A DNA stretch of 58,859 bases from assembly GCA_964558375.1 (NCBI GenBank), contig CAZLCD010000002.1:1-58859 (forward strand), read 5' to 3'. Source of the stretch: an uncultured Candidatus Saccharibacteria bacterium. Lineage in GTDB: Bacteria; Patescibacteriota; Minisyncoccia; Phycocordibacterales; PALSA-1337. Numbering within the stretch: the first letter of the stretch is position 1; every line of letters starts with the position of its first letter. The notes below the pieces were generated by a model. The model was not told the origin of the DNA. It worked only from the letters and a program-made list of their open reading frames with translations, and did no database searches. Shown one piece after another: positions 2,134 to 3,813 of the stretch. Position numbers and translations under genes: made by a program.

Positions 2134-3813
2134 ATGGCTGAATCAACAGGAAACAACAAATTCCCTTGGGAATCGTCCATGACGACCAAGGAGCTATTAT
2201 TGCAACTTGTAAGAAACTCAGATGAAACTGAGAAGGTTGATTTTAAATTAGACTTCAATCTTCAAAGTTCCAAGTCAGACAAGAATGAGCTTTTACTTGA
2301 TATGGCATGTATTGCTAATAGTTATTCTAGCGACTATGACAACCATGGTTTTTTAATCTTGGGCATTGATCCAGACACGAAAGAAATAAAAGGTACTGAT
2401 GTAACAAAAGAAGGACTGACGACTCATATCGATGAAAGAATGGTAAAATTTTTAAGCCCACACATTAGATTTACTGTTGAGCTTTACGATACAGAAGATG
2501 GTATAAAAAAATGGGGAGCAATCATTATTAAATCTGTCTTAGAGTTACCACATATTTTTATTACTGACACTGGAGAATTTAAGAGGGGTGAAGTATGGGT
2601 CAGAAAAGGAAGTCACAAATGTCCTGCAGACCCCACTGATTTCAGTCGCTTCTATGCGATCAGAACTGAATCTCTTAAGAGAGGCTTGGATCAACTTGAG
2701 ACAAAAATGAATCTTCAGGAAAATGATTTGAAGAAACGAATTGAAGCCATTGAGAAGAAATACAAAAAACTACCACCAGTTTCAAAAACTTTACCCGCAC
2801 ATCAAAAAGGCAAGGATACAAAAGTGATAGAACTAGAGCCGGCTATTCCAGAATACATTAATCAATCCTCTCAGGATGATCAAGACTTGTTATCTCTGGT
2901 TAAGAAAGAACTCCCAAAGCATTCCCCGTTGGAGTCTTCTTTACTAAAAGAAGTTCAAGCTGGAATTGTCTTTCTTGAATCAGATGAAATTCCTTGGACT
3001 TTAAGAATTGGAGAATCAAACAAGCAGGAGGCTTTTGATGTATTACAAAAGATTCAGAGTAAGTTTGAAAACTACTATAAAGCATTATTGGAGTTAGCAT
3101 TTTTCAGCGATAAAAAGGAACACCTTGAGGTTATTATTAATTCAGTACAGAAACTTGCCAGATACATACACAAAGGTGGAGTGCCTTATGAGGCTCTCTA
3201 TGTAAGATATCTGCCCCTAGTCACAACTTTGTATATTGTTTCAATTGCAACAGTTTATAGAAATAATCCAGACCTATTAAAACGAGTCATTGCATTGGAT
3301 CTTTTCAATAAAGACAGATACGAAGGTAAGCATTCAATAACTGATGCACTCTTTTTTATCAGGAGTGCATCTGAGGTTTTTGATGCCTTACATACAGGAT
3401 ACCCAAGACAAAAGTGGTGTGATGGTGTTGGTACTTATTTGAAGCAATACTTTTCTTCAATGTTAGCAAACTATGATGAGTTTCAAGATCCTGAAGCCTT
3501 GTTTTATCAGGGCGAGTTTTTACTAACGCTTACGCCAGTAATTGCTGTGTCTAAGAATGGTTTAACAATAGGTCACATATCTGCAGGTAGCTACATGTTT
3601 TATAATGAAGCCCAACATATTCTTGAAGAGTTTCTACAGAAAAACAAAGTATTCTTTGAGAAGATCTTTGATAAGAATCTAAAAGCAGTACTAGAAAACT
3701 TTGATGAATATGCTCCAAAGATGGGCAATCGTGGAGGTTGCTGGGCAGATGGAATCCCTCAATCTGTTACAAAGATCCTTTTTCCTCAAGCGACCACTAT
3801 TAAAACTAATTAG
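2134..3813 (+). CDS. Schlafen/AlbA_2-like domain protein with a large uncharacterised helical C-terminal region
   Basis: The N-terminal ~170 aa follow the AlbA_2 pattern: E.VDFK ... LLLDMACIANS ... GFLILGID..TKEIKG ... I.FTVELY ... GAIIIKS ... PHIF ... GEVWVRKGSH. I saw no recognisable motif in the remaining ~380 aa. Confidence 0.6.
   Translation: MAESTGNNKFPWESSMTTKELLLQLVRNSDETEKVDFKLDFNLQSSKSDKNELLLDMACIANSYSSDYDNHGFLILGIDPDTKEIKGTDVTKEGLTTHIDERMVKFLSPHIRFTVELYDTEDGIKKWGAIIIKSVLELPHIFITDTGEFKRGEVWVRKGSHKCPADPTDFSRFYAIRTESLKRGLDQLETKMNLQENDLKKRIEAIEKKYKKLPPVSKTLPAHQKGKDTKVIELEPAIPEYINQSSQDDQDLLSLVKKELPKHSPLESSLLKEVQAGIVFLESDEIPWTLRIGESNKQEAFDVLQKIQSKFENYYKALLELAFFSDKKEHLEVIINSVQKLARYIHKGGVPYEALYVRYLPLVTTLYIVSIATVYRNNPDLLKRVIALDLFNKDRYEGKHSITDALFFIRSASEVFDALHTGYPRQKWCDGVGTYLKQYFSSMLANYDEFQDPEALFYQGEFLLTLTPVIAVSKNGLTIGHISAGSYMFYNEAQHILEEFLQKNKVFFEKIFDKNLKAVLENFDEYAPKMGNRGGCWADGIPQSVTKILFPQATTIKTN

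Follow-up and report, generated by a model that had tools for sequence, protein, structure and literature searches.

Prokaryotic Schlafens (pSlfns) that carry one of various fused sensor domains confer phage protection on bacteria, as described for RorSlfn5, which has an Ig-like sensor and senses a phage tail-assembly chaperone, and for EcoSlfn7, which has a DUF262 domain (Perez Taboada et al., Nat Microbiol 2026, PMC13056530). In the same study, the motif Ex4(E/D)xK is the mark of active prokaryotic Schlafens, and 17% of pSlfns are “unannotated fusions”. The CRISPR-associated Schlafen-Csx15 protein CbCash (PDB 9ylu) is a tRNase switched on by cA4 (cyclic tetra-adenylate), and requires E17, D22 and K24, together with Mg, for the cleavage of T-loops and anticodon loops (Nat Commun 2026, PMC13462974). 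A Schlafen protein from Enterococcus lactis, with a C-terminus devoid of known domains, provides broad defence of the abortive-infection type (PLoS Biol 2026, PMC13552941). Finally, PDC-S65 is a single-gene phage defence candidate from the PDC series of Payne et al. (bioRxiv 10.1101/2024.01.29.577857); we found no literature on “PDC-S65” under that name. Here, we analysed a 58,859-nucleotide stretch of DNA (hereafter referred to as the window) from an uncultured Candidatus Saccharibacteria bacterium, in which an open reading frame (ORF) with an ATG start, at 2134..3813 (+), encodes a Schlafen-fusion protein of 559 amino acids (hereafter referred to as P0001; other P numbers are our identifiers for individual proteins). 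The domain composition and distribution of P0001 make it likely that this protein is a single-polypeptide anti-phage sensor-effector of the pSlfn class. Single-gene defence by pSlfns has been known since 2025-2026, and the demonstration that these proteins are anti-phage tRNases, with specificity conferred by the fused sensor domain, dates only from 2026; the architecture of P0001 is uncharacterised. The gene and its parts are as follows:

2134..3813 (+), Schlafen-fusion gene (P0001, 559 amino acids), from the ORF call, Pfam, PADLOC, the alignment and substitution ratios
2155..2631 (+), Schlafen/AlbA_2 nuclease domain (residues 8-166), from Pfam, the family profile against the PDB, Foldseek and the structural model
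2224..2247 (+), catalytic motif Ex4DxK (E31, D36, K38), from the alignment, with the motif as defined in PMC13056530
2632..2877 (+), long helix spanning residues 167-211, then a linker (213-248) that is disordered and poorly conserved, from the AlphaFold2 (AF2) model, the alignment and substitution ratios
2881..3798 (+), all-alpha C-terminal domain (residues 250-555), putative sensor or switch, from AF2, PADLOC, hhalign and the ESM Atlas
2066..2133 (+), predicted promoter/leader moving with the gene, including an extended -10-like box, TGTCATAAT, from the limit of DNA homology and reading of the sequence

Residues 31-164 of P0001 matched the Pfam family PF04326 (SLFN_AlbA_2) with an E-value of 1.7e-11 (45.1 bits, against a gathering cutoff of 25.3; 47.6 bits in a genome-wide scan), and the alignment spanned positions 1-116 of the 118 in the profile. 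A profile constructed from 35 family members had CbCash as its sole convincing solved match (E 1.2e-20, residues 12-166). In the full-length AF2 model, the Schlafen domain had predicted local distance difference test (pLDDT) values of 85-92, and Foldseek searches with the modelled domain retrieved SAMD9 tRNase, SLFN11, SLFN13, SLFN12, SLFN14, SLFN5 and the bacterial AlbA_2 protein DIP2311, all with a probability of 1.0 (PDB matches 9o0d, 7fex, 5yd0, 3lmm and 7lre; E 3e-4 to 5e-4). An earlier note on this DNA, based on the letters alone, had recognised an AlbA_2/Schlafen-type N-terminus and had named beforehand a failure of profile searches to support AlbA_2 as the result that would overturn it; the Pfam and family-profile searches, together with the Foldseek results for the model, support the AlbA_2/Schlafen assignment. 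The nucleic-acid binding proposed in the same note fits the family, but can be refined to more than binding, as a complete catalytic triad is present: E31, D36 and K38 are invariant across the 35-sequence alignment and align with E17, D22 and K24 of CbCash. On the basis of this intact triad, the N-terminal domain is probably a catalytically competent Schlafen RNase domain and, therefore, probably the effector of the protein. The odds that tRNA would be its substrate are, in our estimation, about even.

P0001 resembles the described pSlfns in being a single polypeptide in which a Schlafen nuclease with the Ex4(E/D)xK motif is fused to a presumed sensor domain, in the sporadic, mobile nature of the genes, perhaps in a partial association of these genes with defence islands, and in the expected mechanism, phage-triggered tRNA cleavage. 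It differs from them in its partner domain, an all-alpha domain of 310 amino acids rather than an Ig-like, DUF262, HisKinase or helix-turn-helix (HTH) domain, and in its host, a bacterium with an ultra-small genome; it would belong among the 17% of unannotated fusions. CbCash is the closest solved structure in terms of sequence, with an aligned E-D-K triad and a Schlafen effector placed under a C-terminal sensor, but the sensor of CbCash, a Rossmann-like Csx15 domain, binds the cA4 of type III CRISPR systems, whereas the putative sensor of P0001 is all-alpha, with no CARF or Csx15 domain and no CRISPR link. The E. lactis protein, compared here by description rather than by C-terminal sequence, is similar in its combination of a Schlafen domain with an unannotated C-terminus.

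The model of P0001 consists of two domains joined via a flexible linker. The C-terminal domain (310 amino acids; hereafter referred to as the C-domain), modelled alone by AF2 with 43 sequences, gave a pLDDT of 92.9 and a predicted template modelling score of 0.91. No Pfam, NCBIfam or PHROGs family was matched outside the N-terminal domain. Foldseek comparison of the C-domain with the PDB identified no convincing neighbour (best E 0.06), a result indicating that the domain has no assignable known fold and providing no proof of a new fold, and an exhaustive VIA-align search returned only generic helical repeats, such as SMG5/7 and Munc13 (best Z 6.5). A search of named clusters of the ESM Atlas by language-model features gave no usable match. 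Informative relatives were nevertheless identified at the sequence level. Residues 293-526 of P0001 matched positions 348-585 of the 592 in the PADLOC profile for PDC-S65 (52 bits, E 1.7e-14), and hhalign comparison of the C-domain alignment with the SIR2 protein P0166 yielded a probability of 95.8% over 215 columns, including the RYYPL/RLYPV and GEF/FEY blocks. The C-domain has other relatives at the sequence level, in which the N-terminal domain is a different one: PNP_UDP_1 (P0117), EAD8 (P0119) or a borderline cyclase (P0036). In a structure search of the ESM Atlas, the fold was found (template modelling scores, TM, of 0.64-0.72) joined to SIR2, TIR or AlbA_2 domains, or alone, the TIR fusion being seen by structure only. 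The C-terminal ~380 amino acids had previously been described as helical-looking and lacking a recognisable motif; the all-alpha model and the absence of a Pfam match agree with this description, but the PDC-S65, SIR2, PNP and EAD8 fusions show that the region does have informative relatives.

Full-length PDC-S65 proteins, such as P0166 (704 bits) and P0136 (566 bits), are SIR2_2 fusions of ~580 amino acids. P0001 is similar to these proteins in overall length and layout, with an N-terminal effector followed by a C-terminal helical domain, and the C-terminal ~240-280 residues are homologous (PADLOC and hhalign matches as above; TM 0.72 in the ESM Atlas), but the effector is of the SIR2 (NADase) type in PDC-S65 and a Schlafen RNase in P0001. 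Membership of PDC-S65 was considered for P0001 and ruled out: true members match over their full length, including SIR2, with 566-704 bits, whereas P0001 has no match to the N-terminal 340 positions of the profile and is therefore not a member. As one and the same C-domain occurs with swappable NADase, nucleosidase, RNase, TIR and adaptor domains, we infer that the Schlafen domain is the effector and that the helical domain would act as a constant sensor or switch with exchangeable effectors. Such an arrangement, with interchangeable effectors on one constant domain, is typical of immune sensor-effector proteins. As far as we found, the link between this C-domain, PDC-S65 and the PNP, EAD8 and TIR fusions is undescribed.

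The host genome (648,532 bp in 13 contigs) is 100% complete by marker genes. The closest relative of P0001, P0006, is 88% identical at the amino-acid level and 83% identical at the nucleotide level, and the ratio of nonsynonymous to synonymous substitutions (dN/dS) between the two genes was 0.06 overall (0.04 for the Schlafen domain, 0.17 for the linker region and 0.06 for the C-domain). This low ratio shows strong purifying selection on the gene, which is therefore expressed and constrained. The start codon occupies an equivalent position in the relatives included in the 35-sequence alignment. An exhaustive search of representative proteins identified 224 proteins with E ≤ 1e-3, among which ~35 full-length clusters have the P0001 architecture. 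This distribution is sporadic. No match to P0001 was found in 60 related genomes, 36 of them from the same genus, and a sample of 400 phylum genomes yielded none at full length; six of these encode only a Schlafen domain, in an unrelated architecture. Among species-representative genomes, searched with the closer-set query, the only full-length relative was that of a Mucilaginibacter metagenome-assembled genome (MAG), with 28% identity. No relatives were detected among IMG/VR viral contigs, GenBank phages or PLSDB plasmids at the sensitivities used. The contexts of seven homologues were as follows:

P0006 (88% identity), adjoining G6PD/6PGD genes, with no tRNA; homology to 2066-3791 alone
P0008 (69% identity), followed by genes for Bsp6I endonuclease, a DNA methylase and a large serine recombinase
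P0012 (58% identity), followed by WYL, NYN and GmrSD_N/HNH genes
P0015 (27% identity), downstream of a type II restriction-modification (R-M) pair
P0013, P0014 and the Mucilaginibacter copy (28-55% identity), in uninformative contexts

The genomic context thus differed in every relative examined, and R-M, GmrSD or NYN genes were present in three of the seven, a sample too small for statistics. These few contexts would fit a mobile accessory gene family with a partial association with defence islands. The finding of conserved housekeeping homologues, which the earlier note had said would refute its interpretation, was not made: the homologues are sporadic and accessory, and their contexts varied. 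DNA homology to the P0006 locus is confined to the gene plus the 68 nucleotides upstream (2066-3791), and P0001 was most likely acquired horizontally. Four independent metagenome contigs carrying relatives (L005, L006, L008 and L009) end 100-175 nucleotides upstream of the gene start, which points to a repeat, or a junction that is variable in the population, directly upstream of the cassette in these genomes as well. The P0008 contig (L008:1-4666, Ga0306869_1001942) starts, ~100 nucleotides upstream of the gene, with CGTAGGGTCACCA, a 13-mer identical at 12 of its 13 positions to the tRNA-Glu 3' end of same-genus relatives; this contig may be a complete, recombinase-bearing version of the tRNA-Glu-linked island described below. 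The genome also encodes a second Schlafen-domain protein of 324 amino acids, at C4:15552-16526 (-) (C1, C4, C7 and C12 denote other contigs of this assembly), with a bPH_2 (bacterial PH) domain followed by AlbA_2 (74.5 bits); its gene lies between truB (tRNA pseudouridine-55 synthase) and a 160-amino acid ORF, near hisS and bipA.

In the window, the P0001 gene lies downstream of a tRNA-Glu gene, between copies of the 3' end of this tRNA:

1091..1162 (+), tRNA-Glu(UUC), the anchor of the slot (ARAGORN; Rfam tRNA, 60 bits)
1283-1303 (+), first copy of the tRNA-Glu 3' end, with 3 mismatches (18-nt part at 1286-1303), at the end of module copy A
1351..1959 (+), unknown 202-amino acid ORF (P0002) with a hydrophobic N-terminus, the cargo of segment 2, from the ORF call
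1940-1973 (+), GC-box remnant before the left boundary copy, from sequence comparison
1974..1995 (+), exact 22-nt copy, made up of TGAC and the 18 nucleotides of the tRNA-Glu 3' end, bounding the Schlafen segment on the left, from repeat comparison
4059-4080 (+), exact 22-nt copy of the tRNA-Glu 3' end at the end of module copy B, bounding the Schlafen segment on the right
6007..6027 (+), fourth, partial copy of the tRNA-Glu 3' end, within a NUDIX ORF, at the end of segment 4, from repeat comparison

The last 18 nucleotides of both exact repeats correspond to the 3' end of tRNA-Glu(UUC), from T-loop C56 to the discriminator base, and by our own arithmetic ~1e-4 exact 22-mer pairs would be expected by chance in 58.9 kb. 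P0001 is the only ORF of at least 100 amino acids between them. The earlier description of the gene as solo cargo between att-like repeats therefore holds for this sub-segment and for the exact identity of the repeats to the tRNA-Glu 3' end, but the sub-segment, the third, is one of four tandem segments, each of them tiny (0.14-2.1 kb), in a general-purpose variable slot with no integrase, and the repeats belong to a structured module that recurs behind many tRNAs of this genome. Four same-genus genomes have the order MscL, tRNA-Glu, 1.3-3.3 kb of unrelated cargo, SNase and orf307. In this genome, 8.6 kb separate the tRNA-Glu gene from the SNase gene at 9773, and nothing in this interval is common to those four genomes; the whole stretch from 1163 to ~9770 is therefore a variable slot relative to same-genus genomes. 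The cargo in the relatives consists of an SMR transporter, a desaturase, an NAD-binding protein and one NYN nuclease. A role as a dedicated defence hotspot was considered for the slot and is unsupported, the relatives' cargo being mostly non-defence. No recombinase domain was found among the scanned ORFs of 1163-9770 (serine recombinase was not searched for genome-wide), and the sole PF00589 match in the genome is on another contig, at C1:100216. The locus thus resembles tRNA-integrated islands in its strain-specific cargo downstream of a tRNA and in the flanking direct repeats of the tRNA 3' end, but differs from them in having no integrase in or near the island, in its tiny, tandem segments, and in the embedding of the repeats in a conserved structured module behind at least seven tRNAs.

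P0002, encoded upstream, matched no Pfam, NCBIfam or PHROGs family (best PADLOC row insignificant, E 0.013) and is not linked to Schlafen homologues elsewhere. It was considered as a partner gene and rejected, as the homology to the locus of the closest relative ends 68 nucleotides upstream of the Schlafen start. The next segment contains a NUDIX hydrolase gene (5518-6060, +) with a weak PADLOC match to PDC-S07 (E 9e-8), the last codons of which are made from the fourth, partial tRNA-Glu 3'-end copy. The SNase-family thermonuclease gene (9773-10300, +) matched the PADLOC model C3a212 (SNc+LTD; E 1.2e-40), but SNase is part of the conserved backbone in the four same-genus genomes, and this match is therefore probably no defence call.

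The tRNA-derived copies belong to a repeated module of ~140 nucleotides, of which two copies accompany two of the four tRNA-Glu 3'-end copies and others are dispersed:

1157..1304 (+), module copy A, with a terminator-like hairpin, GC-rich conserved core, covarying hairpin, TGAC and degenerate tRNA-Glu 3' end, from repeat and covariation analysis
3915..3937 (+), degenerate remnant of the tRNA-Glu anticodon arm, directly before module copy B, from repeat and sequence comparison
3934..4081 (+), module copy B, ending in an exact copy of the tRNA-Glu 3' end, from repeat comparison
3953-3969 (+), bidirectional terminator-like hairpin within module copy B, from sequence analysis
45860-46008 (-), further copy in the window
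C12:73-200, C4:36060-36217 (-), C7:260-400, C1:183200-183320 and C1:51255-51438 (-), further copies on other contigs

Over 143 nucleotides, copy A (1157-1299) and copy B (3934-4076) share 99% identity. Four elements make up the module: a terminator-like hairpin, a GC-rich core that is invariant, a long hairpin with covariation, and an outer helix, in which an upstream strand is paired with the tRNA-derived tail. RNAalifold identified compensatory changes in 22 of 34 pairs. It lies directly 3' of at least seven tRNAs (Glu-UUC, Glu-CUC, Ala, Ser-ACU, Ser-GCU, Leu-UAG and Arg-UCU), and each copy ends with TGAC and the 3' end of its own tRNA, beginning at T-loop C56. Rfam matched tRNA alone over 900-4300, and the module therefore corresponds to no described RNA family. 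One simple explanation would be recombination within the module by a circular or linear DNA that came from a different tRNA-Glu locus and carried P0002 together with the Schlafen gene. The tRNA-derived copies begin at C56, one nucleotide 3' of U55 (junctions 1145/1286/1978/4063), and CbCash-type Schlafen tRNases cut T-loops immediately 5' of U55 (PMC13462974); the proximity of the two positions is probably a coincidence.

The candidate single-gene defence or sensor protein proposed in the earlier note is an interpretation that we share, given the intact triad, the association of the C-domain with swapped effectors and the sporadic occurrence of homologues. In the mechanism that we envisage, the Schlafen active site would be kept off in the resting state by the C-domain, tethered through the long helix and flexible linker, or by the oligomeric state of the protein. 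An infection cue, either a phage protein or a nucleic acid, would be recognised by the helical C-domain, which might alternatively drive an activating oligomerisation. Once activated, the Schlafen domain would function as a metal-dependent RNase with E31, D36 and K38 as its site, and would cut tRNA, in its loops or acceptor region, leading to translation arrest and a limited phage yield, as in abortive infection. The gene and its own promoter would have entered the variable slot downstream of tRNA-Glu horizontally, the boundaries of this slot being the tRNA 3'-end copies embedded in the structured module.

Several points weigh against an anti-phage role for P0001. We know of no phage of this uncultivated host. 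The architecture itself lacks experimental precedent, and its function is a prediction. The sensor role of the C-domain derives from domain-swap logic only, and this domain could be a scaffold or an oligomerisation module instead. Four of the seven homologue contexts examined contain no known defence gene, the tRNA-Glu slot carries mostly ordinary accessory genes in relatives, and the immediate neighbours of P0001 are not recognised defence genes, the only hint being the weak NUDIX match to PDC-S07. Moreover, ~30% of pSlfn genes are not associated with defence (PMC13056530), and PDC-S65 itself is a candidate by “guilt-by-embedding” within loci for BREX, DISARM and type I R-M systems, for which phage protection is only predicted (bioRxiv 10.1101/2024.01.29.577857).

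Two other explanations are unlikely, each to about the same extent. P0001 could be a selfish toxin or addiction module, in which the Schlafen RNase would serve as a toxin stabilising a mobile segment and the C-domain as an inhibitor acting in cis, with no phage sensing. Its intact triad and its movement as a cassette consisting of a single gene with its own promoter, with no conserved partner gene nearby, would fit such a module. However, there is no antitoxin-like partner, the relatives adjoin R-M and GmrSD genes rather than plasmid-maintenance genes, with none found on plasmids, and the swapping of SIR2, PNP, EAD8 and TIR effectors on the C-domain is the pattern described for immune sensor-effector proteins. 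Alternatively, P0001 could be a non-immune nucleic-acid-binding or regulatory protein, the helical domain of which would bind a cellular ligand. The lack of an HTH or ATPase domain by Pfam, the invariance of the catalytic residues, the failure to find P0001 in any of the 36 other same-genus genomes searched and the sharing of its C-domain with NADase- and nucleosidase-type effectors argue against a regulator, even though HTH or ATPase modules are fused to many AlbA_2 proteins, which carry annotations as regulators, the neighbours in this genome are metabolic-looking accessory genes, and ~30% of pSlfns are not defence-associated (PMC13056530).

A function in an episymbiotic lifestyle, in which the RNase would attack a host bacterium or competitors instead of phage, is very improbable. 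The small genome suggests a host-dependent lifestyle and the gene is strain-specific, but the N-terminus has no obvious signal peptide or secretion-associated domain by eye, and none by Pfam, no immunity gene is adjacent, and full-length relatives are found in free-living phyla, as in the Mucilaginibacter MAG. A housekeeping nuclease for tRNA processing or quality control is scarcely credible: Schlafen domains do act on tRNA and the gene does adjoin a tRNA gene, but it was not found in the 60 relatives, nor in full-length form in the 400 phylum genomes, its context is different in every relative, and orthologues in conserved genus synteny were not found.

If P0001 is, as we consider likely, an anti-phage sensor-effector of the pSlfn class, then a 648-kb genome of the host-dependent type spends 0.26% of its DNA on an immune-type gene that was most likely acquired horizontally. 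P0001 ties the C-terminal domain of an unannotated pSlfn fusion to the catalogued SIR2 candidate PDC-S65 and to the PNP, EAD8 and TIR fusions. We tentatively propose, as a generalisation with slightly less than an even chance of being correct, that the C-domain is an undescribed module of bacterial immunity, widespread and serving as an infection sensor or activation switch, which governs at least five effector chemistries unrelated to one another (Schlafen RNase, SIR2 NADase, PNP nucleosidase, TIR and EAD8 adaptor/cyclase), with single-gene systems in the ultra-small genomes of the candidate phyla radiation (CPR) delivered into recombinase-free, tRNA-linked slots bounded by structured modules. 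The notion of one sensor module with many effectors is a testable hypothesis, for which these fusions provide natural domain-swap controls and, if it is true, finding the trigger of the C-domain would define a new sensor class for “PDC-S65-like” systems.

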